A stretch of 64,000 bases of DNA from positions 2,038-66,037 of the forward strand of contig CACGKI010000001.1 in NCBI GenBank assembly GCA_902573565.1. The letters run 5' to 3'. This DNA comes from an uncultured Prochlorococcus sp. (GTDB lineage: Bacteria; Cyanobacteriota; Cyanobacteriia; PCC-6307; Cyanobiaceae). The position numbers were made by a program, and so were the translations under genes. Below are positions 8,430 to 25,651 of the stretch, piece by piece. Each line of letters begins with the position of its first letter. Within the stretch, counting starts at the first letter, position 1. A model generated the notes under the pieces. That model was not told where the DNA came from, did no database searches, and saw only the letters and a program-made list of their open reading frames with translations.

Positions 8430-8517
8430 TTTTTGAATTATTTGTAAATAAAAAATATAAATTAGTTTTTAAAAATTTAATTTGTGGCTACCTCTTAAAT
8501 AGGGACATAAATTATTT

Positions 8518-8784
8518 ATGACATTAAGCTTAAATATTGGAAACTTATTTAATGATTCCTCTAGCCATGCATTAGTAGATGAGCTAAGAAAAAGAACATC
8601 AGAAGAGGCTATCTTAGATTTTGAGGAAAAATTTAACTCCAGAAACGAAAAAAATCTACATGTTTACATATGTAGATTTCTGAAAAATAGATCAATATCC
8701 AGAGGGCTAGCCTCTAAATGGTTAATAACCATAATTAAAAACAAAGAATCAAAAATTGATGCTCTGCAAAAATTACATAATTAG
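8518..8784 (+). CDS. Hypothetical protein
   Basis: 88-aa ORF only, no recognised motifs. Its 3' end overlaps the convergent ORF by 4 nt. Confidence 0.3.
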   Translation: MTLSLNIGNLFNDSSSHALVDELRKRTSEEAILDFEEKFNSRNEKNLHVYICRFLKNRSISRGLASKWLITIIKNKESKIDALQKLHN

Positions 8785-9061: not shown

Positions 9062-9097
9062 GTGAGAAACAACGTGAGAAACAACGTGAGAAACAAA
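9062..9097. repeat. Three tandem copies of a 12-nt unit, GTGAGAAACAAC (last copy ends in A)
   Basis: Read directly: gtgagaaacaac gtgagaaacaac gtgagaaacaaa, in an intergenic region. Confidence 0.9.
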
Positions 9098-9293
9098 CTA
9101 AATATTTTTGACGAGGAGACTAATTACATTATTAAGATATTAAGTTTTTTGATTTAAAACCTAGACAAATAATTTACGGGAGTGTTAAGCTAAATTTGTA
9201 GCAACCGCTACCAAAACGTTCAACTTGCGTTTAGCAAGCCGCAAATCGACTTAAGCCATGGAACGGGGACTTAAGCGAAACCGGAGCTTAAAA

Positions 9294-9395
9294 ATGACTC
9301 TAATTTACAGAGGACAAAAGTACGTCCAGAACAAAGAAGTTGCTAAAAAGCAGCATAACGAACTAACTTACAGAGGTAAAGCTTATACAAGCTAG
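9294..9395 (+). CDS. Small protein with duplicated YRG motif (DUF4278-like), 33 aa
   Basis: Manual translation MTLIYRGQKYVQNKEVAKKQHNELTYRGKAYTS. The internal repeat (L)xYRGxxY resembles the cyanobacterial DUF4278 family. A hairpin plus T-run terminator follows directly. Below the ORF-track length cut-off. Confidence 0.45.
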   Translation: MTLIYRGQKYVQNKEVAKKQHNELTYRGKAYTS

Positions 9396-9413: not shown

Positions 9414-9441
9414 AAAAGAGCCACTAACAGTGGCTTTTTTA
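9414..9441 (+). terminator. Rho-independent terminator
   Basis: aaaag AGCCAC taaca GTGGCT ttttt. Stem 9419-9424/9430-9435, T-run 9436-9440. A-run upstream makes it potentially bidirectional. Confidence 0.6.
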
Positions 9442-9526: not shown

Positions 9527-9676
9527 ATGGCAGACAAGAAACCTTTATTTAAAGCTCCTTATGATATAAAAGATGTTAGTGCTCTTTTCGCTATAGTTGC
9601 CTTTGTATTAATAATTGCTGCCATAGTTGGAAATAACTTATTTGGTTTATTTCAAGAAAGTGTGAATTTCGGCTAA
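9527..9676 (+). CDS. Hypothetical small single-TM protein, 49 aa
   Basis: Manual translation MADKKPLFKAPYDIKDVSALFAIVAFVLIIAAIVGNNLFGLFQESVNFG. ATG start, one clear TM helix. Below the ORF-track cut-off. Confidence 0.35.
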   Translation: MADKKPLFKAPYDIKDVSALFAIVAFVLIIAAIVGNNLFGLFQESVNFG

Positions 9677-9734
9677 TAACAATATTAAACTTGACTTCAT
9701 AATCTCTATGGTGATGTTTATCCAGAGACTAAAT

Positions 9735-10553
9735 TCACAAAATTTTCAAAATTATAAACTCATTTCCAAATAGCCATACGACTAATCCTCCTAGAGAAAT
9801 AAATGGAGCGAAGGGGATTACTTGTCTAAACTTCAAAATATTTGTAGATAAACCTACTAGACAATATATTGCAGCAAATATATAAGAAAGACCCACAGCA
9901 AGTAATGTTCCAATTGGACCAAGCCAAATAGCAAGCATTGCGACTAATTTTGTATCTCCTTTCCCAATAGCATCTTTTTTGAATATATATTTAGCAAAAT
10001 GTCTTAAAAATTCAAAAATTAAAAATGATATTACTGGTGTACTCAGACCTTTAATAATTAAAAAAAGATCTATAAATTTATCATTTAACATTTCGACAGT
10101 GATTAATCCTATCAATCCAGAAATAAATCCAAAATTTATTAAACCTTGAGGAATCCAAAAACAACTAATATCAATTAAAGATATACAAATCAAAAGAGAC
10201 AAAAACAACCAGCTAAAAAAAACTTGTAGAAATAAGTTTGAGTTAAAATTTTGAAAAGTGGGCGAGCTATTAACAAATAAAACAAACAAAATCCCAGTTA
10301 TAAATTCAACGAGAGGGTATCTAAATGATATTGAAGAGTTACAATTCTTACACTTACCCTTTTGAATAACCCAACTAATTAAAGGTATATTTTCTATCCA
10401 AGTTAATTGATTTTTACAATCAGGACAAAAACTTCTTGGTTTTACAATTGATAGATCATTCGGAAATCGAAAAACAACTACATTTAAAAAACTTCCTATA
10501 CAAATACCAATTACAAACGCTGAAAAATAATTAATCACTATCATTATTTTCAA
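9735..10553 (-). CDS. pilD: Type IV prepilin peptidase / N-methyltransferase (peptidase A24)
   Basis: 272 aa, polytopic. Zinc-type CPDC...CKNC pairs in the first cytoplasmic loop, with the conserved IENIPLISW and FRYPLVE blocks. Confidence 0.85.
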   Translation of the reverse strand: MKIMIVINYFSAFVIGICIGSFLNVVVFRFPNDLSIVKPRSFCPDCKNQLTWIENIPLISWVIQKGKCKNCNSSISFRYPLVEFITGILFVLFVNSSPTFQNFNSNLFLQVFFSWLFLSLLICISLIDISCFWIPQGLINFGFISGLIGLITVEMLNDKFIDLFLIIKGLSTPVISFLIFEFLRHFAKYIFKKDAIGKGDTKLVAMLAIWLGPIGTLLAVGLSYIFAAIYCLVGLSTNILKFRQVIPFAPFISLGGLVVWLFGNEFIILKIL

Positions 10554-10678
10554 GTAGTTATACTTTTAACTTAAAGTATCAAAGTTTTATAAAAAAGAAT
10601 AAAGTTCTTTTGATGCGATAAGAAAATAGATTTTATTTTTTGTATTTAAGTTGACAAAAAAATAACTAAACACGAAAA

Positions 10679-10684
10679 TATAAT
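10679..10684 (+). promoter_or_regulatory. Candidate -10 box (TATAAT) for the pilA operon
   Basis: Perfect TATAAT 24 nt upstream of the GTG start. The TTGACA at 10651-10656 is 22 nt away, too far for a canonical -35. Confidence 0.25.
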
Positions 10685-10707
10685 GATATACATAATAACT
10701 TTTAAAA

Positions 10708-11184
10708 GTGACTTTATTAAAAGCATATTTAAACAGCCCTAGAGCAAAAAGAGCTCTTTCTAAAAAACCAGGGGAGGAGGGATTCTCTCTTATTGAATTG
10801 GTTGTTGTTGTAGCAGTTCTAGCAATACTATCAGCGATTGCTATTCCTTCTTTTACAAGTATAAGTCTAAAAGCACAAGCATCAGCAGCTGCGAACACTG
10901 TTGCTACAGTAGCTAAGGAATGTGCGGTGAAATACGCCAATGGAGAAACAACACCAACAAGACCTATTGTTACTCCTGATGGTTATGGTGCAATTACAGT
11001 AACTGCTCCAACAGGCACAGGGGCAACTGTCAGATGTACAAGGACTGGTCTCATCACAGCTGCTGCAGAAGGAGATGGATCTACAGGTAACCCAAGAACT
11101 TTGCCAGATTTTGTTTATAACGTTACTACTGGCGATAAAACATGCACAACTGGCTATCAAGGTTGTCCTTCAGGTAGATGGTAA
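10708..11184 (+). CDS. pilA: Type IV pilin (major pilin candidate), GTG start, ~25-aa leader
   Basis: Class III signal G|FSLIELVVVVAVLAILSAIAIPSF with Glu at +5. T/G/A/P-rich C-terminal domain with 4 Cys. No other start codon lies between GTG 10708 and the cleavage site. Confidence 0.8.
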   Translation: MTLLKAYLNSPRAKRALSKKPGEEGFSLIELVVVVAVLAILSAIAIPSFTSISLKAQASAAANTVATVAKECAVKYANGETTPTRPIVTPDGYGAITVTAPTGTGATVRCTRTGLITAAAEGDGSTGNPRTLPDFVYNVTTGDKTCTTGYQGCPSGRW

Positions 11185-11247
11185 TTCGACTCTTTTAAGT
11201 TCTACTATTTAAATTTATAAATCCCTTTATTATTTAATAACTAAATT

Positions 11248-11745
11248 ATGAATAAAAGGATTTATAGAAACTTAATTTACTTATCTTTTTCATCCATATT
11301 ATTGTTTGGTTGCTCCCAAAACAATAATATGGATATAGATTTGTCTAATTTACCCAAACCTAAGCTAAATCAAATAATTGATTTAACAGAGGAAGAGCCA
11401 GTCAAAGAAGATAACCAAACATATATTAAAGATTTAGTGCCTTTCGAGCCTAAAGAAAGATTACTTTCAAAATACAAATTTGGGAAAAAAGATCCTTTCT
11501 CAGAAAATGAAAATGAATTAAATAAATTAGGATCAGATTTTAAATTAAAAGGTTTTCTTGAGACAGATACTAAAAAATATGTAATTGTAGATTATCTAGG
11601 AAATAATGGCTCAATTTCCGAAGATTCTATTGGAGGTTTAAATACCGAATTATTACCTAATGGAGCAAAGGTAATTTTTATAGATGCTGAAGAAATGAAA
11701 TTAAAAATTAAATATGAAAACGAAGATTATATCTTTGAACTATAA
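11248..11745 (+). CDS. Lipoprotein, possible PilP-like pilus alignment component
   Basis: Lipobox LLFGC. C-terminal segment KLKGFLETDTKKYVIVDYLGNNGSI...GAKVIFIDAEEMKLKI resembles the PilP beta-domain pattern. Sits between two pilin genes. Confidence 0.4.
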   Translation: MNKRIYRNLIYLSFSSILLFGCSQNNNMDIDLSNLPKPKLNQIIDLTEEEPVKEDNQTYIKDLVPFEPKERLLSKYKFGKKDPFSENENELNKLGSDFKLKGFLETDTKKYVIVDYLGNNGSISEDSIGGLNTELLPNGAKVIFIDAEEMKLKIKYENEDYIFEL

Positions 11746-11835
11746 AAATTTTAATTAAGGTTAGTTTTAAAATTACTTAGTTGTTTAAGTTTTAATTAAA
11801 TATTATAATAAATACTCTAATCCATTGGATATCTC

Positions 11836-12981
11836 ATGAAAATATCCAAAACAAACAAAAGTGAAAATCATAATCAAGGCTTTACTCTCATAGAGCTAGT
11901 TGTTGTTGTTCTAGGGTTAGCCGCTTTAGCAGGTTTAACCCTCCCTAGTTTTCTTAATTCAATAAAACTAAATAGAATTGAAGAAGCCAAGGCATTAATG
12001 AATAGTTTCGCTACAGATTGTTTAGGAAAATATAGGATATCAACTGATCCAACAGATTTTATTGAAAATGCTACTCCAGATGAATTAGATAATATAAAAT
12101 TGTCAACATTACAATATCAAATCGATGGAGATAAAAATAAGTGTTCTCATGTAGCAATCAAACCTTTAAATGAAGATGAAAAAGATCTTTTTGCTTTTGA
12201 CTTCAGAATGTCAAGTGAGGGGAAAATATTAAAAACTGCTCAACCTTCCAGTAATCCAGACTTTCTTAACTCATGTAGAGGCTGGGCAGGAAAAAATTGC
12301 GGACTATCGGATGCCCAAAAAGCAGAATTTGCAAGACTAGCTGCATTAGCAAAAGCTAAAGCAGAATGTATTTCAGCTTATACCTCATGGTTAAATGATA
12401 AAAATAGTGGCGAATTTAGAACTTGGGATAACAGTAATGAGAATTGTACTAGACAGGTTTTTGCTTTTGAAGGAGTTCCAGTAAATTCACTAGAAGCAGT
12501 GGATCAAGCTTTAAAATCTAAGTATGGAAGAGCATGTTTGGATTGGAGAGAATCAAAAAAAAATACTATCAGTCCAAACGGCAACCCAGAAACTAAAAAT
12601 CCAGAATGTGGTGGCGTGCAGTATTGGTTCCATTCTGGAAATATATTTACAACCAAAGCAATGTGGGATGCTCACGACAATCTTCTAAAACAACAAGCAT
12701 GCGTTAAAAACAGAACAGATGCTCTTAACGGAGGTGTAAAAGGCAAATATACATATACACCTCAAGGGCCGCCACCTTGCGGCCAGGTTGTATGGTTATG
12801 TAATGGAGAAGAATATGGGTCACTTGAGGCGTATAAATCTACTTCTTGTGGTGCTCCGCCACCACCTCCAAAAGATCCTCCTGTTCCACCACACTGTGTA
12901 AATTTTGAACCACTGGCATTTTTATGCGGTGGCTATGTGCCTGGAAAGTCTAGATTTAGTCCAGCCTGTGAGTGTAGATAA
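11836..12981 (+). CDS. Large pilin-like protein (381 aa) with Cys-rich, poly-Pro C-terminus
   Basis: Prepilin signal MKISKTNKSENHNQG|FTLIELVVVVLGLAALAGL. Many Cys. C-terminal GAPPPPPKDPPVPPHC...CECR. Its stop abuts the pilB ATG. Confidence 0.7.
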   Translation: MKISKTNKSENHNQGFTLIELVVVVLGLAALAGLTLPSFLNSIKLNRIEEAKALMNSFATDCLGKYRISTDPTDFIENATPDELDNIKLSTLQYQIDGDKNKCSHVAIKPLNEDEKDLFAFDFRMSSEGKILKTAQPSSNPDFLNSCRGWAGKNCGLSDAQKAEFARLAALAKAKAECISAYTSWLNDKNSGEFRTWDNSNENCTRQVFAFEGVPVNSLEAVDQALKSKYGRACLDWRESKKNTISPNGNPETKNPECGGVQYWFHSGNIFTTKAMWDAHDNLLKQQACVKNRTDALNGGVKGKYTYTPQGPPPCGQVVWLCNGEEYGSLEAYKSTSCGAPPPPPKDPPVPPHCVNFEPLAFLCGGYVPGKSRFSPACECR

Positions 12982-14637
12982 ATGTCAAATAATCAATATA
13001 CAGCTACAAGTGTACGAAAGTTAGTAGATAAGTTTTTCTCTCTTCAGTGGTGCAGAGATAATTTAGTAGTTCCTCTATATGAGGAGACATCTTTGCCTAT
13101 GAGCCAGGGGATAATAAAAATAGCTATCGCAAACTATTCATATCTAGGAACTATTGCTTCCCCAATCAAGGAGAGATTAAGTCAATCTGGCTTTAAATGT
13201 GAATTTGTAGAAAGATCTCAAGAAGAAATACAAGAGATCCTAGATTTAGCATCTGAAGAAAGATTTATAAGTGGAGAATCTATAGAGATATCACAATTTG
13301 ACGAGGATGCAGTTCTAGAGGCCATAAAAGAAACCTCAGATAATTCGGATGATAGTTTTTCATTTGAATTTGATGATGATGATGAAACTGCAAATATTGA
13401 AGAAGATAGTTTAGATTTGGCATCCGAAATGATGGAAAGTAAAATTCAAAAGGCAGCAGGAATGGTATTAATCAATTCTAGAAAAAATGATGTATCTGAT
13501 ATTCATATCGAACCGAGAGAAGATGGTTACAAGATAAGGGTAAGGAAGGATGGAGTAATGCAAAAATTCATGTCAATGTCTAAAAAACCAGGAATTCAAT
13601 TAGTTGCATGTTTAAAAAATATGGCCCAGATGGATATTGCTGAAAGAAGGGCCAGTCAAGATGGGAAAATACTTAGAAAATTTGAAGGTAATAGATTTGA
13701 ATTCCGTTGTTCAACTGTTCCAGGAAAACATGGCGAAAAAATGGTTCTAAGAATCTTAAATAGTGATGCATCGGCACTAAATTTGGATACTTTAATTCAT
13801 ATTGAAAGTGTTAGAAAAGATTTTAGAAAAATAATGAATGCCACAAATGGGATAGTGATCGTTTCTGGTCCTACTGGCTCTGGTAAATCAACAACGCTAG
13901 CCGCAGCTTTAAGAGAAAAGGATACAGGAGATTCAAATATAGTAACTGCCGAAGACCCTATTGAATATGATATGGGAGGAGATATAAATCAAGTTCAGGT
14001 AAATAGGGCGAAAGGACAAACATTCGCTATGATTTTGAGAACTTTTTTAAGACAAGATCCAGACGTTATTCTTATTGGTGAAACTAGAGACCCTGAAACA
14101 GCAGAGTCATCTATGGATGCCGCTGAAACTGGTCATTTAGTTTTTACTACTCTTCATGCAAATTCATCAACTAGTTCTTTAACAAGATTATTAGACATGG
14201 AAGTCCCAAAATATAAGTTAAATGCAAGTGTTAGAGGTGTCTTGGCCCAAAGATTGCTTAGAAAAATTTGTACAGGATGCGGAATAAAAAGGCCTATTTC
14301 TGAAAATGAAGCTATTGAATTTGGTATCCCAAAGAATACTCCAATAATGTACGCAAATTCTTTAACGGCAGAAGAAAAATTAAACCGAAAAAAGGAAAAT
14401 ACTCTTTGTCCAAAATGTCAAGGCGCAGGATATAAAGGAAGAGTTGGGGCATATGAACTTCTTCTTATCGATAGAAACATACAAAATGCTATTTCCAAAG
14501 GATTAACCGATAGAGAAATTGAAAATTTAGCAGTTAACGAAAATTCAATGCTCACTCTTACTCAATACGGTGTAGAGTTAGTTAAAGATAATTTAACAAC
14601 AATTTCAGAAGTAATTAGGGTATGCAAATCGGATTAA
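12982..14637 (+). CDS. pilB: Type IV pilus assembly (extension) ATPase, GspE/PilB family
   Basis: 551 aa. Walker A GPTGSGKST, tetracysteine CTGC...CPKC, Asp/His boxes, N-terminal T2SSE_N-like domain. Confidence 0.9.
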   Translation: MSNNQYTATSVRKLVDKFFSLQWCRDNLVVPLYEETSLPMSQGIIKIAIANYSYLGTIASPIKERLSQSGFKCEFVERSQEEIQEILDLASEERFISGESIEISQFDEDAVLEAIKETSDNSDDSFSFEFDDDDETANIEEDSLDLASEMMESKIQKAAGMVLINSRKNDVSDIHIEPREDGYKIRVRKDGVMQKFMSMSKKPGIQLVACLKNMAQMDIAERRASQDGKILRKFEGNRFEFRCSTVPGKHGEKMVLRILNSDASALNLDTLIHIESVRKDFRKIMNATNGIVIVSGPTGSGKSTTLAAALREKDTGDSNIVTAEDPIEYDMGGDINQVQVNRAKGQTFAMILRTFLRQDPDVILIGETRDPETAESSMDAAETGHLVFTTLHANSSTSSLTRLLDMEVPKYKLNASVRGVLAQRLLRKICTGCGIKRPISENEAIEFGIPKNTPIMYANSLTAEEKLNRKKENTLCPKCQGAGYKGRVGAYELLLIDRNIQNAISKGLTDREIENLAVNENSMLTLTQYGVELVKDNLTTISEVIRVCKSD

Positions 14638-14647
14638 ATTTATTCAT

Positions 14648-15691
14648 ATGTCAATAGCTCGGGAGATAGTAGGTTTTGCAATAGAGGCGGGTTCCTCAGA
14701 TATCCATCTTGAAGAGAACTCTCCTATTGCAGTCAGGGTGAATTCTGAAATAAAGGTGAGTCCACAGAAATTAGACTCAGAAGATATGGATGAATTATTA
14801 CTAGAATTGCTAGGTAAAGAAAAATTAAATGAATACAATAGCACTGGAGATTTAGATAGCTCAATAGGCTTAGATGGACTATCAAGATTAAGAATTAATG
14901 CATACGTAGCAAATGAAAAAAGATGTCTTACTCTTAGACTACTCCCAAATGAACTTCCTAAATGGCAAGATTTAGGTCTACCTGATTCTTTCATTAAACT
15001 ATCAAAGCTTCATAGAGGTTTAGTGTTATGCACTGGTCCCACTGGATCAGGGAAGTCAACCACATTAGCAGCATTTATTAATTGCATGCTTGAGACACAA
15101 CAGAGGCACATATTAACTATTGAAGATCCAATAGAGTTCATTTTTAAACATACAGAAAATTCAATAATCCATCAAAGAGAAGTTAAAAGAGATACAAACT
15201 CATTTTCAGTTGCGTTAAGAGCCGCTCTTAGAGAAGATCCAGATGTAATTTATATTGGGGAAATGCGAGACTTAGAAACAATACAGTTAGCAATTACAGC
15301 TGCAGAAACTGGGCATCTAGTATTAGGAACACTGCATACTTCTTCAGCTGCAAAAACAGTTGAAAGAATAGTTGATGTATTTCCTGCTGATCAGCAAGAA
15401 CAGGCAAGATTGCAAGTTTCTACATCATTAGCTGGTATTATGTCTCAAACTTTATGTAAAAACACAAAAGGGAAAAGATCTCTTGCTTTCGAGTTAATGG
15501 TAAATACTCCTGCGATAGGTAACTTAATAAGAGAAAAAAAAGTTAGCGAAATTTATTCACAACTACAAACAGGCAGTCAATACGGGATGAACACTCTAGA
15601 ACAATGTCTAAATTCTCTTTATGCAGATGGTTTAATCTCTCAAGAAGAAGCATTAGGTAGAGCTTCAAACCCTAAAGCTATAAAATTATAA
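14648..15691 (+). CDS. pilT: Type IV pilus retraction ATPase
   Basis: 347 aa. Walker A GPTGSGKST. PilT-type AIGNLIREKK motif (compare AIRNLIRE). No N-terminal extension. Confidence 0.88.
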   Translation: MSIAREIVGFAIEAGSSDIHLEENSPIAVRVNSEIKVSPQKLDSEDMDELLLELLGKEKLNEYNSTGDLDSSIGLDGLSRLRINAYVANEKRCLTLRLLPNELPKWQDLGLPDSFIKLSKLHRGLVLCTGPTGSGKSTTLAAFINCMLETQQRHILTIEDPIEFIFKHTENSIIHQREVKRDTNSFSVALRAALREDPDVIYIGEMRDLETIQLAITAAETGHLVLGTLHTSSAAKTVERIVDVFPADQQEQARLQVSTSLAGIMSQTLCKNTKGKRSLAFELMVNTPAIGNLIREKKVSEIYSQLQTGSQYGMNTLEQCLNSLYADGLISQEEALGRASNPKAIKL

Positions 15692-15693
15692 AA

Positions 15694-16860
15694 ATGGTTG
15701 AATATGGTAATACTACCCAAGTAAGTAGCAAGGCAAAAAGAAATCCTCCACCAATTGTTTTTGGCATACCATTCGGGGAGATATCTCATTTAGACTATGA
15801 ACCTGATACAAAATTAAAAGTACCTCAAAATGATTTATTAGTCTTTTTTAGGCAAATGTCGGTAATGCTTAAAAGTGGAGTTGCACTCTCACAGGCATTA
15901 GAGCTATTAGCTGAAAATATGACTAATAAAAAGTTTGGTTCTAATATCCTTGAAGTATCAAAAAAGCTAGGAAGTGGAGAAGAGCTATCATCCAGCTTGG
16001 GGGCATTCCCCAGAATATTTAGTCCAATAATGATAGGACTTATTGAAGCTGGGGAAGCTGGAGGTATTTTATCTCAAGTTCTAGAAAGATTAGCCGCATT
16101 AATCGAGGCCAGAAGTAAGATAAAAGGGCAAATAACTGGAGCACTAATATATCCAGTAGCAATACTTGTTTTAGCCGTAAGCGTAAGTCTTGGCCTTTTA
16201 ATATTTATAGTTCCAAAGTTTGAGACAATGTTTGCAGATATGGGGGCTGAACTTCCTGGTATAACAAATTTCATGCTGACATTGTCCAGAATAGTAACCA
16301 CTTGGTCTTTTGCAATTATTGCTCCCTTAACATTATTCATTGGTTTTTATTTTTTTAATATTAGTTATGCAACTCCTACTGGGAGGAAATTTTTTGATAA
16401 CTTGATTTTAAAAATTCCCTTATTTGGAGATTTAATTTTAAAGTCTGAAATTGCTTCGCTATCTGATACACTAAGCACTTTAATTAATTCAGGAATTTCT
16501 ATAGTAGAAGCAATTGAGAGGTGTATAAATGCCTCTAATAACGAAATAATAAGGTTATCTCTGAGAAGATCAATTTCCTTAATCACTCAGGGGCAAGAAT
16601 TAAGCACATCTCTAGAAACTGCAAAAATAATGCCAAAGTTGCTTATATCTATGATTAGGATTGGAGAAGAAACTGGGGCTTTATCATTTATGGTAGAAAA
16701 TATTGCTAATTTTTATAAAAGGGAAGTGGAAGAATCAGTAACTGTTTTAACAAAAGCTATGGAACCTGCAGTTATTTTTGTTGTTGCTGGAATAGTAGGG
16801 ACAATAGTTGTCTCACTTTATTTACCAATGTTTAGTCTCATACAAAATATGGGGGCCTAA
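15694..16860 (+). CDS. pilC: Type IV pilus platform protein (GspF family)
   Basis: 388 aa, two T2SSF-like repeats with three TM segments. Follows pilT by 2 nt. Confidence 0.88.
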   Translation: MVEYGNTTQVSSKAKRNPPPIVFGIPFGEISHLDYEPDTKLKVPQNDLLVFFRQMSVMLKSGVALSQALELLAENMTNKKFGSNILEVSKKLGSGEELSSSLGAFPRIFSPIMIGLIEAGEAGGILSQVLERLAALIEARSKIKGQITGALIYPVAILVLAVSVSLGLLIFIVPKFETMFADMGAELPGITNFMLTLSRIVTTWSFAIIAPLTLFIGFYFFNISYATPTGRKFFDNLILKIPLFGDLILKSEIASLSDTLSTLINSGISIVEAIERCINASNNEIIRLSLRRSISLITQGQELSTSLETAKIMPKLLISMIRIGEETGALSFMVENIANFYKREVEESVTVLTKAMEPAVIFVVAGIVGTIVVSLYLPMFSLIQNMGA

Positions 16861-18314
16861 TCATTTTCTAGAAATGATTTATCCATCTTGAATGATTCCT
16901 TTTTCTTCTCTTCGCTTTTAATTTTAGTTTCTGCTTTTTCCTTTATTTTTAAATTTGGTAATGGGGGTAATTCCTTTTTCTTCTCTTCGTTTTTAATTTT
17001 AGTTTCTGCTTTTTCCTTTACTTTTGTATTTTCTTCATTTAATTTATTTAAAGAATCCATTAGATTAGCTACGGTTTGATTACTAATATCTTCAGTTTCT
17101 TCCTGAGTAGCTTCGCTATTATCATCTTGAAAAATAAATTTTTTCACTAGAAGCCTATCATTTAAAGTTTCGTCTTCTAAATTATTATTCTTTATTAAAC
17201 TCAAACCTAATCCTATAAGTCTTGACATGGAAAATTGATTAATTTCCTCTGGATTATATGAGAATTCTTTAAGAGAACTAGTATTTATTGGAGATATCAA
17301 AGCAACATCCATTTTTAAATTTTTGCCAATTAACTCTACAAGATTCTTATGTTGACTATTTCTACCAGATAAAAATATTTTCCCCTTTTTTTTCAGATTA
17401 TTTTGATTTACGAAATTTGTAAATGCTTGATTTATTTCTCTTATTAATACTTTTAAATCAAGTTGCGATAATGGATGGTAATTATCTGATTTTCTTTTAA
17501 TATTAGACTTATCATTTGTTTCAGCTTTTGTAGTATTCATTTTTTTCATCTCTTCTATTGAAGGAAATCTCCTAATAGAAGCTAATCTTTTTATTAATAT
17601 CGGTCCAGATCTATCAAGAATTACAAATTGAGTGAATTCATCCAGCAAATCTACTGAAATAATTAATTCATTTTCTTCTAATTTATTTATTTCTTGTTTT
17701 AGTAAATTAGCAATACACATATGGCTCATTTGCAGGGAACATATTTCTAAATTTGCATTTTTAATCGAATCAATAATGATCTCTACATTTTTTTTGGGGA
17801 TAGATGTTAAAAAATACTTGTTAAATTTCTTTTTTTTAGATTCCTTTTTAGGGAGTTTTGTTAGGTTTATCTCAAAATCTGAGTTCTCCAAAGATATAGG
17901 TATTTGAATCCCAGAATTAGGGTTCTCTAAAAAGGAAGAAGAATCCTCTTCATTTATATTCTCTGGAATTTCAATCAATCTGGTGTAACAAGTATCTGAT
18001 GGTAAAGATACTGCAACCTTACAGGTATTAATTTTATTTTCATTAATAATCTGTTTTAGAAAAAGACCAAAGTTTTCAGAATCAGAAGGTATTGATTTTT
18101 CTAGTGCTTCCCTTGGTAACTTTTGGGTTAAAACTTTTTTTATATAAAGTTTATTTTTTTGGGATTTGGCTACTCCAATATTTATAAAATCTGTACCTAT
18201 TTCCAATAGGATAATTTTACTACTTATTTTTTTAAAAACTTCTAAAAAAAGTTCTTTAATATCTTCAATTTGATATTCACTTATTTTTTTTTTAGGTGTT
18301 TTGGCTGAGTTCAT
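16857..18314 (-). CDS. pilM: PilM-like actin-fold pilus assembly protein with K/E-rich C-terminal extension
   Basis: N-terminal ~350 aa shows a PilM/FtsA-like layout (LLEIGTDFINIGVA...). The last ~110 aa are low-complexity, with a duplicated KEKAETKIKxEEKKKE. Last gene of the pilQ operon. Confidence 0.55.
   Translation of the reverse strand: MNSAKTPKKKISEYQIEDIKELFLEVFKKISSKIILLEIGTDFINIGVAKSQKNKLYIKKVLTQKLPREALEKSIPSDSENFGLFLKQIINENKINTCKVAVSLPSDTCYTRLIEIPENINEEDSSSFLENPNSGIQIPISLENSDFEINLTKLPKKESKKKKFNKYFLTSIPKKNVEIIIDSIKNANLEICSLQMSHMCIANLLKQEINKLEENELIISVDLLDEFTQFVILDRSGPILIKRLASIRRFPSIEEMKKMNTTKAETNDKSNIKRKSDNYHPLSQLDLKVLIREINQAFTNFVNQNNLKKKGKIFLSGRNSQHKNLVELIGKNLKMDVALISPINTSSLKEFSYNPEEINQFSMSRLIGLGLSLIKNNNLEDETLNDRLLVKKFIFQDDNSEATQEETEDISNQTVANLMDSLNKLNEENTKVKEKAETKIKNEEKKKELPPLPNLKIKEKAETKIKSEEKKKESFKMDKSFLEND
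16896..17020. repeat. Two 50-bp direct repeat copies (16896-16945 and 16971-17020), 75-bp period, 1 mismatch
   Basis: ttcctttttcttctcttcg[c/t]ttttaattttagtttctgctttttccttta read twice. Encodes the duplicated K/E-rich peptide in the pilM-like tail. Confidence 0.85.
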
Positions 18315-18835
18315 AATTTACAAAAAGGTTTAGGCCTACAAAATATTCTCCTAACTGGCGTTGCATTTACTGAAACACCATTTTCTGGTTTGGAATACAG
18401 GATGTAAATGCCCGGTTTACCCTTACCATTAGATAATTCTGAATAATTACTCTCTGATAGTGAAGTTGGTTTAATACATACTCTATACGATTTTGGTATC
18501 GCTTCTGTATCAATTGATGGAATTCCCCATTCTAAAGAAGGTAAAGCAGTGCACTGTAGATTCAAAATAAATTCTTTACTGATACCAGGCTCAGATAATA
18601 TTTCTATAATCGAATCAAAAGTATTATTTATTTGAGAGTGATCGTTAAGCATATCTTTTAATTCTTTATTTGAAGAAATATATTCATCTTTAGCTTCTTC
18701 ATTTAAAGGTTGAAAAAATCTTGAAGTATATTCAACCACCATAACTGTTATACCTGTAAATGCCGTTAACATTAACAATGCTAATACTAATTCTGGAAGA
18801 GTCATTCCTAAATTATAATTTTTTTTATTTTTCAT
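18311..18835 (-). CDS. Minor pilin / pseudopilin
   Basis: Prepilin signal MKNKKNYNLG|MTLPELVLALLMLTAF (Gly -1, Glu +5). 174 aa. 4-nt overlap with pilM. Confidence 0.65.
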   Translation of the reverse strand: MKNKKNYNLGMTLPELVLALLMLTAFTGITVMVVEYTSRFFQPLNEEAKDEYISSNKELKDMLNDHSQINNTFDSIIEILSEPGISKEFILNLQCTALPSLEWGIPSIDTEAIPKSYRVCIKPTSLSESNYSELSNGKGKPGIYILYSKPENGVSVNATPVRRIFCRPKPFCKL

Positions 18836-18838
18836 AAC

Positions 18839-19048
18839 TTACTCATTGAATTTTAATGATTTAATATCTTGATTTATATTTTCAATATCGGCTAAGTTAT
18901 ATCCTGCATCAATTAATATTTGTCTTTCTTCTTCTATAAGGGAATATTTCCCAACTTTAATTAATGCTTTATCAGTGATATTAATTGCTAATAGCATTGC
19001 CACAGTTACTCCAGACATTATGACAGAACCAACCAACGCAGAAATCAT
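18839..19048 (-). CDS. Small pilin-like hydrophobic N-terminus protein (no leader)
   Basis: 69 aa beginning MISALVGSVIMSGVTVAMLLAI. ATGA overlap with the upstream ORF. No G/E prepilin motif. Confidence 0.4.
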   Translation of the reverse strand: MISALVGSVIMSGVTVAMLLAINITDKALIKVGKYSLIEEERQILIDAGYNLADIENINQDIKSLKFNE

Positions 19049-19476
19049 TTATTTACCTCATAAGGACAAAAAGATTCATTCTTCAAGTAACAAGAAAATA
19101 AGCTATAAGTGCCAAAACCAGATTTCTTTATTAAAACTCTATGATTAAGATCTTTGTTTACTAATACGCAACTATTAACAAATAAAGTATTTCTTGAAGG
19201 TGTTTGAGTCCCAGTTGTTGAAAATATTTCTCCGTCTTCATAGAGTGCATTATCCATGTTTTCCTTTATTTTTGAACATATCTCCAAATCAGGTCCTGTA
19301 TAATTATTTATAATATTCAAAATCCTCCTATCATAACTTGGCAGAGCTGAACTGTAGTATACGTCTCTTTTAAATGTACTTAATAGCATAAGATTATTTA
19401 CATTATTTCCTATTTGCATCATTGCTGAAATCCCAGAAATCATTGCAATACCTAAGCCAACGTACAAAAATGTCAT
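19045..19476 (-). CDS. Membrane-anchored protein, pilin-like N-terminus without leader
   Basis: 143 aa beginning MTFLYVGLGIAMISGISAMMQI, with 4 Cys in the C-terminal part. Operon position between pilO-like and the minor pilin. Confidence 0.4.
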   Translation of the reverse strand: MTFLYVGLGIAMISGISAMMQIGNNVNNLMLLSTFKRDVYYSSALPSYDRRILNIINNYTGPDLEICSKIKENMDNALYEDGEIFSTTGTQTPSRNTLFVNSCVLVNKDLNHRVLIKKSGFGTYSLFSCYLKNESFCPYEVNK

Positions 19477-19512
19477 AATTAAATTAATTTAATAATCAAA
19501 TGAAAATCTGAG

Positions 19513-20175
19513 TCAATTCTTGCCATAAAATGTTGTCCTAAGTTTCACTTCCAACTTCTCATTTGGATTATTATCCTCTTTATTAAGATTCTGGTTTGAT
19601 AAACCTAAATTTATCTCATTTACTAGTACTACACTCTCCTGAAATTCTAGTTCTCTTAAAAAAGAAAGCAGATCGGTAAAGTTTGATTTTAAAGTTAACT
19701 CTATTATATATTTTTTAGAACCTTCAACTAAAAGCGGATCGATTATTAATGGTTCATTATTTGAGGATTCATCTAAAGTTTTTCTTTTATCATTTGCAAC
19801 AAAGCTCATAATTTTTGAAGGAACTATAGATACAAATTCAATATTATTTGTTTTACCTAAATCTCCTAATTTAGAAAGTAAAGTTTCTAAGTCTGATTGA
19901 CCAGTAACTAGCTCAATTATTTTTAATTTTTCTTTATTTAATTTTTCAAACTTTTGATTAATTGTTTTGTATTGTAATTTCAAGTTGTCCAAGTCATTCT
20001 TTTTTTTGATTAAATCCTTTAATTCAAAATTTACTTTATTCGATTTAATATATTGAGGCATTACAAAAAAAGTTACTATAAAAATTGATATTCCTGCCGA
20101 AATAAAAACTGGGATAAAAGATGCAGCTTTTTCTGGTGTTAAATAGTTTTTTCTTGGATTAATAGAATTAGTCAT
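19513..20175 (-). CDS. pilO: PilO-like pilus alignment protein
   Basis: 220 aa with one N-terminal TM (FIPVFISAGISIFIVTFFVM), a coiled-coil and a C-terminal alpha/beta-like region. Position after pilN-like. Confidence 0.5.
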   Translation of the reverse strand: MTNSINPRKNYLTPEKAASFIPVFISAGISIFIVTFFVMPQYIKSNKVNFELKDLIKKKNDLDNLKLQYKTINQKFEKLNKEKLKIIELVTGQSDLETLLSKLGDLGKTNNIEFVSIVPSKIMSFVANDKRKTLDESSNNEPLIIDPLLVEGSKKYIIELTLKSNFTDLLSFLRELEFQESVVLVNEINLGLSNQNLNKEDNNPNEKLEVKLRTTFYGKN

Positions 20176-20184
20176 CTTATAAAT

Positions 20185-20874
20185 CTAATCAATATTTTCT
20201 TCAATATTTTTTAAAATAGTTAATCTATTAAAAAGTCCAAATGATCCAAGCTTAGTTAAATAATTCTTATTAATCTTTTTATAGTTTGTTGCAACTTTCG
20301 TATTTATTACAGCTAAAAAACTTTTATCTTCTGAACCTGAATCTGAAACTTTTATTTCTTTTAGATCAATATCATCAAATTCAACCAGTTCAGAATTATT
20401 TAAGTTTAATAAGAAAGAATTTAAAGATCCTAAGTATTCTTTATTAGAAAGCTTGGCTTTAATAACAAGTTTATTACCTAAAGAGGCCAGCTCTAAAAGT
20501 TGAATATCTTTTGGAATTATTAAAGCAATTTCCTTAAATAAGGCTGAACTAGAACTTATATTTATTATTGAATTCTTTAGTTCATTGTTGAATTTAGAAA
20601 TTTCTTTTAATTGTTTTGATTCTAGATCTAAATTTTTTTCAAGAAGATCATACTCATCAGTGAAAGCTTTCAAATTATTTTTTTGATTTTCTAAAAACTT
20701 AATTCTGAAGATAAAAGGGATTCCAAGTGTTAGTGATATTGACATTAAAATCAAACCATAAAAAATACCTCTTTTAATATATTTCTTAGTATCAATAAAA
20801 TAAGGCTCATTTAAATCATTACCTCCCCTCCTCTTTCGAAGTAAATCAATTTGTTTAAAATTACTTTTAACCAT
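20185..20874 (-). CDS. pilN: PilN-like pilus alignment protein
   Basis: 229 aa. N-terminal QIDLLRKRR resembles the PilN INLLP motif. Single TM, then coiled-coil. Confidence 0.55.
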   Translation of the reverse strand: MVKSNFKQIDLLRKRRGGNDLNEPYFIDTKKYIKRGIFYGLILMSISLTLGIPFIFRIKFLENQKNNLKAFTDEYDLLEKNLDLESKQLKEISKFNNELKNSIINISSSSALFKEIALIIPKDIQLLELASLGNKLVIKAKLSNKEYLGSLNSFLLNLNNSELVEFDDIDLKEIKVSDSGSEDKSFLAVINTKVATNYKKINKNYLTKLGSFGLFNRLTILKNIEENID

Positions 20875-20900
20875 TTAATAATTTAATTTTTTATAAAAAG

Positions 20901-22814
20901 TCATTTATCTTTAAGAATTCTTGGTGTAACAAGAATGATTAACTCACTTTTTCTTTTCTGAGTTGAATTATTTCTAAACAAGTTTCCAAGAAGTGGTATA
21001 TCTCCCAGAATAGGCACTTTAGCAGTTGATACGGAGTCTGAGTCTTGAAGTACTCCAGTAAGAATTAACGTATCCCCATTTTTTACCCTTATAGAACCCG
21101 TATCTAATTTCCTTACACTTAAAGTGTTTTGTATCCCACAGCCTGAAATCTCAACTGATCTTGTAACCGAAGAAATAGCAGGACTTAATGCAAAACTAAC
21201 AAATCCATTATCATCTATCTTTTCAACCTTTGCTCCAAATGTAATTCCAGCAGTTCCTTCCTGCGCAGTACATGTAACTACACCTTCATCAGCAGTTTGA
21301 GTAAATCCTGTAACCACGGTTTCACCAACTTTTATAAAACCCTCATTTTTGAAAGGCCTACCAATTGATGCGGAATTTAATCCGTCTCCTACTGAAGCAG
21401 CCCCAGAAGTAAGAGCATTTGGATTCTCTCCAAGAATTAAAGTAGGAGAAGCTAAGACCTTTGCATTTTCATTGGTTATTTTAGCCTCTAGCCAATTTAA
21501 AAAATTACCTTCAGTTAAACCTCCAGCAATAATATTTGGAACATTGGCGGTTTCAGGCGGATTGGCTGGAGCAATATTTGCTGTTACTAAACCAAGACCT
21601 CCTCTATTAATAATTCTTGTATCACCAGTTCTTAGTTCAAAAACGTTATTTTTTATATCGGATTTTGTTAGTGAAACATCAATTATTTTTATAGTTAAGG
21701 CCACTTGTCTATGACGAACATCAAGGGACCTTATATACTTTTCAGCAGTCTTCATAAGATCTTTTGAACCTATTAATGTTATAGTTTGCAACCTTAAATC
21801 AGCAGTCCCAACTAATCCAAATAAAGGGCCTTTACCAATTCCATACGAATTAATATCTTCATCCTTAAATTCCTTTTTATTCATTAAACTATCTCCAACT
21901 TCTTGTCCATTAATTGAACCACTAATTAACATTACTTTTGAAATTTGGGCTCCTAATGTTGAAAGGTAATCAGCAACTGAAGCAGCATTAACTTGATTTA
22001 ATCTAAAAGTCTTGGAGAATTTTGGCATTAAACTTTTGTTTAGAATATTTTTTCCGATAAAAATAATATTATTTTCTAAAATTGCCTGAAAATCAGCAGA
22101 AAGCAAAATACTGTTGAAAACATCAGAAATATCAACATTTTGAAAATTAGCTGTAATCTTAGCTTTGTTAGAACTTTCCTCTTTTGAATTCTTATCATCA
22201 ATAATTATTATTCCATAGTTACCCAATTTACCAATTAAATGCAAAGTCTCTAAAGCATCCGCATCTTTTAGATTAAGTGAAATTTTCTGCTCCGATAATC
22301 TTACATACCCTCTTGATGGAACTTTAAATTCGCTAGAAGATATGACACTTCTTGAAGGCAAAGGTAATTTATTAATATTTTCATGGTTAACTTTATTCCC
22401 ATTCTTTAAGTTCTTTTTATTTTTATATTTCTTATTTGATTTTTTTCTAATATTAATTGATCTATTATTTTGAATATTATTATTTTTATCTACTTCATTA
22501 AAGTTGCCATTTTCATTAGGAATATTTTCTTGTTCATTCTTCAAATTATTAATATTATTGAGATCAAAAGTTTCTTCTACAAATTTCTCTAGCCTTTCTG
22601 CATCTCGGCTAAGAAAATTATTTTCACTATTATCTTTATTTGATATTAATGTCTTAAATTTTCTATCGAATTTTGAATGGAAGTTACTTTTTTCTAAGTT
22701 ACCTGTTCCTGTTTTTCTATTTTTGAAAGAATAAGAACTTATTATCAATTGATTAAAAATCAACAAACAAATTAAAAGTATTTTTCTTTTTTTTATTCTT
22801 GAAAAATTTCCCAT
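20901..22814 (-). CDS. pilQ: Type IV pilus secretin
   Basis: 637 aa. C-terminal secretin signature VPILGDIPLLGNLFRN...ELIILVTPRIL, an N0/STN-like segment, and an N/K-rich low-complexity N-terminal region after a signal peptide. Confidence 0.85.
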   Translation of the reverse strand: MGNFSRIKKRKILLICLLIFNQLIISSYSFKNRKTGTGNLEKSNFHSKFDRKFKTLISNKDNSENNFLSRDAERLEKFVEETFDLNNINNLKNEQENIPNENGNFNEVDKNNNIQNNRSINIRKKSNKKYKNKKNLKNGNKVNHENINKLPLPSRSVISSSEFKVPSRGYVRLSEQKISLNLKDADALETLHLIGKLGNYGIIIIDDKNSKEESSNKAKITANFQNVDISDVFNSILLSADFQAILENNIIFIGKNILNKSLMPKFSKTFRLNQVNAASVADYLSTLGAQISKVMLISGSINGQEVGDSLMNKKEFKDEDINSYGIGKGPLFGLVGTADLRLQTITLIGSKDLMKTAEKYIRSLDVRHRQVALTIKIIDVSLTKSDIKNNVFELRTGDTRIINRGGLGLVTANIAPANPPETANVPNIIAGGLTEGNFLNWLEAKITNENAKVLASPTLILGENPNALTSGAASVGDGLNSASIGRPFKNEGFIKVGETVVTGFTQTADEGVVTCTAQEGTAGITFGAKVEKIDDNGFVSFALSPAISSVTRSVEISGCGIQNTLSVRKLDTGSIRVKNGDTLILTGVLQDSDSVSTAKVPILGDIPLLGNLFRNNSTQKRKSELIILVTPRILKDK

Positions 22815-22850
22815 AAATAATCTACCATTTTCATCTTCTTAAAAAATGGC

Positions 22851-23216
22851 TCATTTTTTAATATTATAAATTATTTTATTTATTGTCATATCATTTAATT
22901 TTAATCTATACATATTACGTATATAATCTGAGGATTCAATTATAGCTAAATCAGGATAATAAGAATTATTAGGAGGTTCTAGATTGTAGCCGAAAAATAA
23001 CTTTAATTGACTACTTACTTGGTCATAATTACTATATGATATTGATTTTTGTCTGTATAACTCTTCTAATTCATTTTTTTGATTCCCACTTCCAAATAAA
23101 TATGAATTTTCTTCTGACTTAGCTCCTAAAAAATTATTCATAAAAAAGATCAAAAGAATAAAAAAAAGATATTTTTTGTATTCATCTATATGGGATATAT
23201 TCCTTAAAACAAACAT
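22851..23216 (-). CDS. Hypothetical secreted protein, first ORF of the pilQ transcription unit
   Basis: 121 aa with a signal-peptide-like YLFFILLIFFMNNFLGA|KSE. 36 nt upstream of pilQ on the same strand. Confidence 0.4.
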   Translation of the reverse strand: MFVLRNISHIDEYKKYLFFILLIFFMNNFLGAKSEENSYLFGSGNQKNELEELYRQKSISYSNYDQVSSQLKLFFGYNLEPPNNSYYPDLAIIESSDYIRNMYRLKLNDMTINKIIYNIKK

Positions 23217-23345
23217 GAATTAGATATTACTTACTATTATCTTAACATTTATCAAAAATCATAATCAAAAAAAATTTATATCCATTAATTAATATTTTTA
23301 GTTTAAAATTTTTATAGTGTTTAATAAATTAAAAGAAATAATTTT

Positions 23346-23615
23346 ATGAGCTTAAGAAAGTCAAAATTAAATAGATTATTTAATTTTATATTTTTTTTAA
23401 CAGGTTTATCATTTGGCATCATATTAATATGGCCAGGGGTATTGAAAAATGATAATAGAAGATGTTTTTATAAGATAATAGTTGATGGAAGTGATGGGAA
23501 AGTAACTATGTCAACTATTTTATCCATAGATCCTAATAGCCTTATAAAAATAAATAATGCTAAAAATAAATATAAAAAAATTTTACTAATTGGTGATCAT
23601 TGCTTCAGAAAATAA
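23346..23615 (+). CDS. Hypothetical protein with N-terminal TM
   Basis: 89-aa ORF only. Confidence 0.3.
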   Translation: MSLRKSKLNRLFNFIFFLTGLSFGIILIWPGVLKNDNRRCFYKIIVDGSDGKVTMSTILSIDPNSLIKINNAKNKYKKILLIGDHCFRK

Positions 23616-23959
23616 AAATGAAATTTAATTCAAATTTAAATTTTCCACAAGAAAGTATTCTAGGATTCAAGATTCTAACTTCATTTCAATCCTCAATATC
23701 CTGTTACTTACTATTACTATTTGGAAAAATACTAAATCCAAAATTTGGATTCAGCCAGATTCAAATCTTAACTGGTTCCTTATTTAATATTATTTTAAAT
23801 TTGAGCATAGTTATATTAATAATTAATCTCATTATTAAAAGAAGGGAAGTACAAAAAATTTCCTTTATTTTTTTAAATTCATTCCTATTTATTTATTTCC
23901 CATTAGCGGTATATTTTATTTTCAAATATATGAAGTATTTAATATTAAGCTTTTTTTAA
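23600..23959 (+). CDS. Hypothetical polytopic membrane protein
   Basis: 119-aa ORF with 3-4 hydrophobic segments. A palindrome hairpin at 23967-23983 follows. Confidence 0.35.
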   Translation: MLQKIKMKFNSNLNFPQESILGFKILTSFQSSISCYLLLLFGKILNPKFGFSQIQILTGSLFNIILNLSIVILIINLIIKRREVQKISFIFLNSFLFIYFPLAVYFIFKYMKYLILSFF

Positions 23960-24276
23960 AAATTTTTTAACCTCTGAGGTTAAATTTAATCTATCAATAA
24001 ATTGAAATAAGGAAGATTAAGAAGGATATATGAATACATATTTTTCTCTTAATGGTTTAACTAAGAAGCAAGCTTTAGTTAATTTTCTATTTTAATAAAT
24101 AAAATTCTAAATTCTGTTAAGAAAGATAGTATTAAAAATTATTATTACTATTAAAATCATCAAAATGATAATAATTCAAATAAATATTATTCAATATTCC
24201 TAGTTTTTTATATTAATAGACTATGAAATCTTTTTTATACTATAATTTCAAAGTTATCAAAACTGAATAACCCCCT

Positions 24277-24363
24277 GGAGGGGTGGTCGAGTGGTTTAAG
24301 GCTCTAGTCTTGAAAACTAGCGTGTCTGCAAGGGCACCGTGGGTTCGAATCCCACCCCCTCCG
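24277..24363 (+). tRNA. tRNA-Ser (anticodon UGA)
   Basis: Folded by hand. Acceptor GGAGGGG/CCCCTCC plus discriminator G. Anticodon stem CTAGT/ACTAG with loop CTTGAAA. Long variable arm GTGTC..GGCAC. T-arm GTGGG-TTCGAAT-CCCAC. Confidence 0.92.
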
Positions 24364-24448
24364 TTTTAATAAAAAGGTACTCAAGTTAAACAAAATAATA
24401 TAAACGCCTTTTTGGTATGTCTTTGTTAAGATAAATTTTATTTGATTA

Positions 24449-25287: not shown

Positions 25288-25294
25288 GATTCTT

Positions 25295-25624: not shown

Positions 25625-25651
25625 AGAAGGTCAGTAAATCTATAAATCTTT

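Follow-up and report, generated by a model that had tools for sequence, protein, structure and literature searches.

Whether a streamlined Prochlorococcus genome encodes a complete and retractile type IV pilus (T4P), and of what kind it would be, is the question raised by positions 9735-23216 of the window, i.e., the whole 64-kb stretch of DNA analyzed here (contig CACGKI010000001.1 of assembly GCA_902573565.1). The original prediction, made from the sequence alone, proposed that every core T4P function is encoded in this region and that the genome is Prochlorococcus-like. The region was interpreted as a complete, self-contained type IVa-like pilus (T4aP) machine of the "PilA1" kind, carried on a 14.5-kb flexible cassette of a high-light (HLII-like) Prochlorococcus, with a probability of about 0.8. 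The host assignment agrees with the surrounding DNA. The G+C content of the window is about 30%, the proteins encoded on the flanks are 89-100% identical to those of Prochlorococcus MIT 9201 and single-amplified genome (SAG) loci, and among the genes of the window are those of a Pcb antenna, lycopene cyclase, glucosylglycerol-phosphate phosphatase, and HisRS, besides others with housekeeping roles. It is an ordinary piece of Prochlorococcus chromosome.

The open reading frame (ORF) map revealed 15 intact, tightly packed ORFs between positions 9735 and 23216, at the places where they had been predicted. Their products were searched against Pfam and NCBIfam with curated cut-offs and compared with the PDB by sequence and profile searches, and AlphaFold2 (AF2) models were compared using Foldseek. 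The features and the principal evidence for each are listed in Table 1. The Pfam/TIGRFAM HMM searches placed seven products (PilD, PilA, PilB, PilT, PilC, PilM, and the secretin) above the curated cut-offs. The genes are arranged in the order orf121-pilQ-pilN-pilO-orf143-orf69-pilin-pilM, convergent with pilin381-pilB-pilT-pilC, and pilP lies beside pilA. The predicted junctions were all read correctly, including the TAA/ATG abutment at 12981/12982 (positions 12979-12984) and the ATGA overlaps at 19045-19048 and 18311-18314. The 3' ends of the convergent pilC and pilM genes share 4 bp (16857-16860), so that two operons end head-on with no space for a terminator. A promoter and terminator scan of this AT-rich DNA was uninformative, giving 66 promoter-like sites against 78.6 expected.

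Table 1. Features of the pilus region and its site, in window coordinates, with the evidence for each.
Feature	Position	Strand	Evidence
pilD, prepilin peptidase/N-methyltransferase	9735..10553	-	A24_N_bact and Peptidase_A24
pilA, major pilin, PilA1 GFSLxE type with conserved 25-aa leader	10708..11184	+	N_methyl, TIGR02532
PilP-like lipoprotein, lipobox LFGC, C-terminal beta domain	11248..11745	+	fold match
381-aa modular pilin (pilin head, Cys-rich C-terminal module, Pro-rich stretch)	11836..12981	+	GFTLIE
pilB, extension ATPase	12982..14637	+	T2SSE 1.8e-102, 343 bits
pilT, retraction ATPase	14648..15691	+	TIGR01420 pilT_fam 426.9 bits (cut-off 319.1)
pilC, inner-membrane platform	15694..16860	+	two T2SSF (PF00482) domains, 1.7e-52, 177 bits
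pilM, actin-like cytoplasmic protein, variable Lys/Glu-rich C-terminal tail	16857..18314	-	PilM_2 (PF11104)
minor pilin (174 aa), class III signal G/MTLPE, 4 conserved Cys	18311..18835	-	invariant prepilin signal
69-aa protein, N-terminal hydrophobic helix, no prepilin motif	18839..19048	-	conserved and syntenic in 11 loci
143-aa protein, leaderless N-terminal hydrophobic helix, 4 conserved Cys	19045..19476	-	orthologue alignment
pilO-like bitopic protein	19513..20175	-	PilO PF04350 and T2SSM_b, below cut-off
pilN-like bitopic protein	20185..20874	-	PilN PF05137, directly upstream of pilO
pilQ, outer-membrane secretin	20901..22814	-	Secretin PF00263 5.6e-29, 101 bits (cut-off 27.5)
121-aa protein, N-terminal signal or membrane anchor, first gene of secretin operon	22851..23216	-	
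two small membrane-protein genes (89 aa and 119 aa)	23346..23615, 23600..23959	+	travel with cassette
variable cassette limits (14,539 bp)	9673..24211		empty-site contigs align to 9672 and again from 24212
tRNA-Ser(UGA), right-hand edge of variable site	24276..24364	+	ARAGORN, Rfam

To the gene content and family placement, which were read directly, comparison among genomes adds evidence of selection. A PilC scan of the genome collection yielded 16 Prochlorococcus loci, one of them (L002) from the complete MIT 9201 genome, in which the order, orientation, and lengths of the 15 ORFs are shared among orthologous loci. As had been predicted, no gene of the window is disrupted. Pairwise dN/dS values, obtained with dS near saturation, were 0.02-0.30 for 14 of the 15 genes and 0.54-0.60 for the gene of the 121-aa protein. 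Because these ratios are low and the genes are syntenic, the unnamed ORFs, including those of the 69-aa and 143-aa proteins, are considered real constrained genes.

In L004 (positions 1-1306; SAG AG-347-J21), a ribonucleotide reductase gene fragment is joined directly to the large-pilin gene, whose reading frame is interrupted by a stop codon and whose product lacks the N-terminal helix; pilD, pilA, and pilP are absent, and the cluster is intact from pilB onward. This locus represents either a partial loss of the cassette or a single-cell-amplification chimera. On two contigs of one metagenome-assembled genome, binchicken_co76_412, loci L003 and L013 carry pilus cassettes that differ from each other, with PilC identities to the window of 81% and 71%, respectively, and it follows that this bin mixes at least two Prochlorococcus genotypes.

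The motor proteins and the platform form one operon with the 381-aa pilin, whose stop codon abuts the pilB start. The PilB translation contains Walker A, Asp box, Walker B, His box, and tetracysteine motifs. Its NCBIfam scores were 393 bits for GspE and 389 bits for PilB (PilB cut-off of 676), both below the equivalog cut-offs, and it matched GspE at 1.4e-82 and PilB at 3.4e-80 among the PDB sequences; it was assigned to the PilB/GspE family at the superfamily level only, as a putative extension ATPase. PilT carries the AIGNLIREKK motif that had been picked out in the original prediction, is 81-95% identical across the Prochlorococcus loci, and has a dN/dS of 0.02. It scored above the TIGR01420 cut-off, and its presence supports a retractile machine. 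PilC scored 288-294 bits on the NCBIfam PilC models, below the equivalog cut-offs, and is 74% identical to the PilC of strain GP2.

The prepilin peptidase PilD scored above the cut-offs of both of its domains (A24_N_bact, 4.4e-34, 116.8 bits; Peptidase_A24, 1.1e-10, 42.3 bits), and its translation holds the CxxC...CxxC pairs and the GKGDTKL active-site motif; the orthologues are 272-276 aa long. The major pilin PilA (158 aa, 4 Cys) matched N_methyl at 4.4e-7 (29.7 bits, cut-off 21.2) and TIGR02532 at 27.5 bits (cut-off 16.3). Its class III leader, ...KKPGEEG/FSLIELVVV with cleavage at G/F, is kept in the orthologues, and it is 47% identical to PilA1 of GP2 (Pro_GP2_0655). A PilA1 with a GFTLxE or GFSLxE motif and PilB, PilC, and PilQ in the same genome, by which the PilA1 type is recognized in picocyanobacteria (PMC7994388), are all found here.

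The second large pilin (381 aa) matched N_methyl weakly (1.4e-3, below cut-off). It is 42% identical to Pro_GP2_0653, and the GP2 orthologue was listed as "PilE" by Aguilo-Ferretjans et al. 2021 (PMC7994388). The AF2 model (pLDDT 78) has a helix at residues 18-68 and a sheet at residues 94-136, followed beyond the pilin part by three helix-hairpin modules and a proline-rich stretch, with 16 Cys in the whole protein. Foldseek gave weak matches to T4a pilins with a probability of up to 0.63, and residues 160-335 had no match in the PDB. At least one minor pilin had also been predicted, and this holds for the 174-aa protein, in which G10, M11, P14, and E15 of the prepilin signal are invariant among 12 aligned orthologues (dN/dS of 0.17). 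This protein had no Pfam match, and its orthologue profile found none in the PDB.

The 69-aa, 143-aa, and 121-aa proteins had no family match in Pfam or NCBIfam. The 69-aa protein has a dN/dS of 0.13. In the 143-aa protein (dN/dS of 0.27), residues M1, Y5, G9, C67, C103, C129, and C137 are invariant in the alignment, and it is possibly a non-canonical minor pilin. The 121-aa protein is kept in nine loci at 32-61% identity. No protein could be assigned to FimU, PilV, PilW, or PilX among the two extra prepilins and the two helix-anchored proteins without a signal.

Beyond the 15 ORFs, the genes of the 89-aa and 119-aa membrane proteins lie beside the cluster in L002, L004, L005, and L007; in L016 and L006, they are found at its opposite end, adjoining pilD. 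Their dS values (0.88-0.95) are like those of the cassette and unlike those of the flanks. Neither protein has a Pfam family match; both may be unrecognized pilus-related components.

PilM matched PilM_2 at 51.4 bits (cut-off 27) over profile positions 3-337 of 340, and a single-sequence phmmer search of the PDB gave a best E-value of only 0.3. Its orthologues range from 469 to 650 aa owing to the low-complexity tail. The 3' end of pilM contains a 75-bp tandem duplication (16895-17031, 94% identical), which encodes the repeated KEKAETKIK.EEKKKE tail. The PilN-like protein matched PF05137 weakly (3.4e-3, 17.8 bits, cut-off 22.8), and its orthologue profile had no match among the PDB sequences; its N-terminal ...IDLLRKRR is conserved (IDLLRxRR) and resembles the PilM-binding INLLP motif of PilN, and this motif, the bitopic layout, and the location beside pilO favor the assignment. 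Weak matches of the PilO-like protein to PF04350 (3.1e-3, 18.1 bits, cut-off 22) and T2SSM_b (4.8e-3) were accompanied by a match of its orthologue profile to Myxococcus PilO (3jc8_O, E = 5.9e-4). Of the predicted PilM/N/O-like proteins, PilM was thus recovered above its cut-off and PilO by its profile match, and the Pfam matches of PilN and PilO fell below theirs.

The lipoprotein that had been suggested as PilP belongs to no Pfam or NCBIfam family, and its orthologue profile had no match among the PDB sequences. It has 387 homologues in marine metagenomes and a dN/dS of 0.30. The AF2 model, built with 33 homologues, gave block-mean pLDDT values of 91-96 for the beta domain at residues 98-165. 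The Foldseek matches ranked 1-8 were all PilP (2ivw, 2lc4, 2y4y, 3jc8_P, and 4av2_M) or the GspC HR domain (3oss), with probabilities of 0.8-1.0 and E-values of 0.02-0.1; rank 10 was the PulC HR domain (6hcg_e, TMt of 0.75, rmsd of 2.0). The predicted fold and the lipobox support a PilP-like role and strengthen the initial suggestion. The secretin scored just under the cut-offs for Secretin_N and STN. GspD was its best NCBIfam model (104 bits; PilQ TIGR02515, 73 bits, cut-off 284), GspD and PilQ chains in the PDB were matched at 1e-13 and about 1e-11, respectively, and these scores do not resolve its type within the secretins.

From the known roles of these families, the following mechanism may be proposed. 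PilD would cleave and methylate the prepilins, i.e., the GFSLIE major pilin, the 381-aa modular pilin, and the GMTLPE minor pilin. The major pilin would be polymerized by PilB on the PilC platform, and the filament would be routed via the PilM-PilN-PilO-PilP alignment complex and then the PilQ secretin to be displayed on the surface. PilT would depolymerize the filament, making it retractable. Long pili would raise drag, so that cells stay suspended and are less grazed, at the cost of more frequent encounters with phage. The ecological part of this proposal is drawn by analogy from experiments with Synechococcus WH7803 and Prochlorococcus MIT9313, two strains that have other variants of the pilus. 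The functional retractile pilus of the original prediction is supported at the level of sequence, with PilT and every named core function intact, and is not new.

Several observations weigh against this interpretation. No strain has given direct evidence that a GFSL-type cluster makes filaments, and the functional experiments concern cluster types with a PilC that shares only 33-36% identity with that of the window. The PilN assignment is weak, with a sub-cut-off Pfam match and no PDB profile match. PilB and the secretin score equally well or better on models of the type II secretion system (T2SS), and only two canonical extra prepilins are encoded, compared with four or five minor pilins in classical T4aP.

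The T2SS scores raise the alternative that the machine is a T2SS (GspC-M), or mainly so, which would use a short pseudopilus to drive folded proteins out across the secretin instead of building a long pilus. Both systems draw their ATPase, platform, secretin, and HR-domain protein from shared superfamilies, and several scores lean toward the T2SS, namely the marginally higher GspE values of PilB, the GspD match of the secretin, the T2SSM_b match of the PilO-like protein, and a lipoprotein fold equally close to PilP and to the GspC HR domain. This alternative is nevertheless very improbable. None of the models of GspC, L, H, I, J, or K was matched at its curated cut-off, the pilin N-termini alone giving weak sub-cut-off GspH/GspG matches, and the orthologues of the major pilin are PilA1 proteins that have been catalogued as subunits of pili. 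The machine was assigned to the T4aP type rather than to the T2SS because a bona fide PilT above its curated cut-off is encoded in the operon, PilM and PilN are separate instead of being replaced by a fused GspL, and the pilin is of the PilA1 type. T2SSs are not known to have a retraction ATPase.

A T4aP need not serve flotation, and the original prediction also considered DNA uptake. PilT is present, and in Synechococcus elongatus, as in many other bacteria, DNA is taken up by means of retractile T4P (PMC7125226). Yet Supplementary Data 1 of PMC7994388 has no PilA2, PilA3, ComEA, or ComEC entries for GP2 and MIT9201, and strains with PilA3 do have Com proteins; no com or dprA genes were found in the 64-kb window, and its pilin is of the PilA1 and not the PilA3 type. 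A pilus used chiefly for competence is accordingly not favored and was judged very improbable. About as little credence was given to a silent or decaying remnant that builds nothing. Most Prochlorococcus lack the cassette, as shown by empty sites and by the 12.7% of SAGs with pili genes, and L004 lacks pilD, pilA, and pilP and has a truncated large pilin with an in-frame stop. In the window, by contrast, 15 of 15 ORFs are full length with intact catalytic motifs, dN/dS is well below 1 for every gene (though with near-saturated dS), and Prochlorococcus pilA1 transcripts are abundant in TARA data (PMC7994388). A complete T4aP machine of the PilA1 kind remains the preferred interpretation.

Comparison with published clusters showed that the original prediction overrated the novelty of the locus. 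Orthologous clusters of the HLII strains GP2 (Pro_GP2_0650-0655) and MIT9201 (Pro_MIT9201_1024-1029) are listed in Supplementary Data 1 of PMC7994388. The same work found PilA1 with PilB, PilC, and PilQ in 33% of Prochlorococcus isolates and 14-24% of high-light SAGs, the GFSLxE motif in five Prochlorococcus PilA1 proteins, and transcription of Prochlorococcus pilA1 across the TARA stations. It also showed that PilA1 pili keep Synechococcus WH7803 suspended and cut grazing and that PilA1 is secreted by Prochlorococcus MIT9313. A 2025 preprint counted pili genes in 12.7% of 690 Prochlorococcus SAGs and showed that cells encounter phage more often when they bear pili. The cluster type is therefore already known, and all three functional ideas (flotation and grazing, DNA uptake, and phage) have been addressed in print.

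The GP2 and MIT9201 clusters share the gene order, chromosomal site, and GFSLxE leader of the window, with PilC 74-80% and the large pilin 42-67% identical. They differ in that the window carries another allele (pilin 47-52% and secretin 68% identical). Proteins of the window were absent from the exact-match index, and one identical copy of the large pilin occurs on an NCBI contig. The WH7803 PilA1-PilE pilus also has a PilA1-type long-leader pilin, a second larger pilin nearby, PilB/T/C, and PilM/N/O/Q, and its working principle is presumed to be identical. Its genes are spread over several loci (pilA cluster, pilCTB, and pilMNOQ), whereas the window has one cassette with the order Q-N-O-x-x-pilin-M, and its pilin motif is GFTLxE instead of GFSLxE. 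The Synechococcus A15-127 homologues are 36% (PilC) and 42% (PilB) identical to those of the window.

Canonical T4aP, as in Myxococcus xanthus and Pseudomonas aeruginosa (pilBTC, pilMNOPQ, pilD, and fimU-pilVWXY1E), have all their core functions represented here, with PilN and PilO as weaker candidates, the PilO profile pointing to Myxococcus and the PilP fold to the PilP of Pseudomonas and Neisseria. In contrast to these systems, the gene order is reversed and interrupted, PilY1 and a recognizable FimU/PilV/PilW/PilX set are missing, PilM has a long Lys/Glu-rich tail, and pilP lies beside pilA, outside a pilMNOPQ operon.

A second cluster type occurs in the same host clade. The clusters of the HLII strains MIT9301, MIT9302, MIT9311, and MIT9312 encode the same kind of machine and were counted as "PilA1 pili" in the 2021 survey, but their PilC (33-34%), PilQ (34%), and PilB core (48%) identities to the window show that the two are not alleles of one cluster. 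By sequence comparison, HLII isolates carry two apparently unrelated pilus cluster types, which are pooled by surveys of "PilA1 pili".

An exhaustive HMMER search with the window PilC recovered its own isolated group (60% identity, 471 bits), a gap, and a next match of 259 bits. This next match (P0123) is picocyanobacterial, 41% identical to the window PilC and 71% to a Synechococcus PilC, and below it follows a flat continuum of 35-38% identity across many phyla. The neighbor-joining PilC tree, a rough distance tree of 320 columns, loosely grouped three picocyanobacterial types. Recent import of the cassette from another phylum was considered and dropped, since the best outside relative of its PilC is itself picocyanobacterial and the tree loosely groups the three types. 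The pattern tentatively suggests three deep picocyanobacterial pilus lineages rather than a recent foreign import.

The chromosomal site was characterized by a metagenome scan with the downstream 194-aa gene, which gave four kinds of contig. Empty-site contigs L036, L037, and L051 have flanks near-identical to the window and about 130 bp in place of the cassette; in these and in L067, the small ORF that ends at window position 9676 is 110-218 bp from tRNA-Ser. Other cargo of 1.7-5.3 kb lies between the small ORF and the tRNA in L032, L070, and L079, and a divergent pilus cassette occupies the site in metagenome contig L075, in addition to the cassettes at this site in the 16 genome loci. The cargo in L032 (620-5946) encodes an 860-aa TPR protein and a GIY-YIG-domain protein. 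A histidine kinase/response regulator pair is located upstream of the tRNA in L107 (1-5355), where the small ORF is off the contig and the left boundary is unverified. A cassette that is present in some genomes and absent from others, always at one site framed by conserved flanks, has the polymorphism of a flexible island.

No att-like direct repeats or partial tRNA-Ser copies were found in the window by a repeat search, and no integrase is encoded among its ORFs, and the cassette was not classified as a mobile integrative element. The sequence on both sides of tRNA-Ser varies among the metagenome contigs. Partial tRNA-Ser copies (36-45 bp) were noted upstream of the full gene in L031 (784-827), L059 (907-951), and L102 (184-219), and insertions of 2-5 kb lie 3' of tRNA-Ser in some contigs (the list of contigs with partial copies or insertions further includes L038, L045, L057, L075, and L102). 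There are signs that integrative elements also use tRNA-Ser in other genomes.

Relative to L005, synonymous divergence was 0.7-1.6 in every cassette gene, including pilT, and 0.2-0.6 in the flanks (6021-8784 and 24703-26086). The best-matching locus changes from gene to gene inside the cassette. Because cassette dS exceeds flank dS and the closest locus differs by gene, the cassette alleles are inferred to be much older than the backbones and shuffled by recombination, as in replacement-type islands; these two-sequence estimates are near saturation. A more far-reaching view is that the GFSL-type cassette represents a distinct third pilus lineage, and that balancing or negative frequency-dependent selection, probably exerted by phage, has maintained it in Prochlorococcus populations as an ancient "replacement island". 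This is a doubtful proposal. Its lineage-specific parts (the Cys-rich module of the 381-aa pilin, the two leaderless helix-anchored proteins, the PilM Lys/Glu tail, and the two linked membrane proteins) could give a function unlike the Synechococcus flotation pilus, for example, attachment to particles or partner cells.

Upstream of the cassette, a glutamine-II riboswitch (9214-9275, + strand, 69.8 bits) is followed by a 33-aa ORF, MTLIYRGQKYVQNKEVAKKQHNELTYRGKAYTS, at about 9294-9395 and a terminator-like hairpin at 9419-9435. The riboswitch unit is kept beside the empty site in metagenome contigs. It resembles the known riboswitch-controlled small-protein arrangement of marine picocyanobacteria. 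A perfect tandem repeat with a 12-bp unit, GTGAGAAACAAC, in 2.9 copies (9062-9096) lies about 120 bp upstream of the riboswitch.

The additions made here are modest refinements and will not surprise specialists. They comprise a complete 15-gene parts list with a fold-supported candidate PilP, the exact 14.5-kb limits of the cassette beside tRNA-Ser, cassette alleles that appear far older than the surrounding genome, the separation of two pooled HLII cluster types, and a set of lineage-specific genes. These data are useful for annotating and counting picocyanobacterial pili. Type IV pili in Prochlorococcus bear on how the cells of the most abundant phototroph stay in the lit layer, escape grazers, and meet phage.

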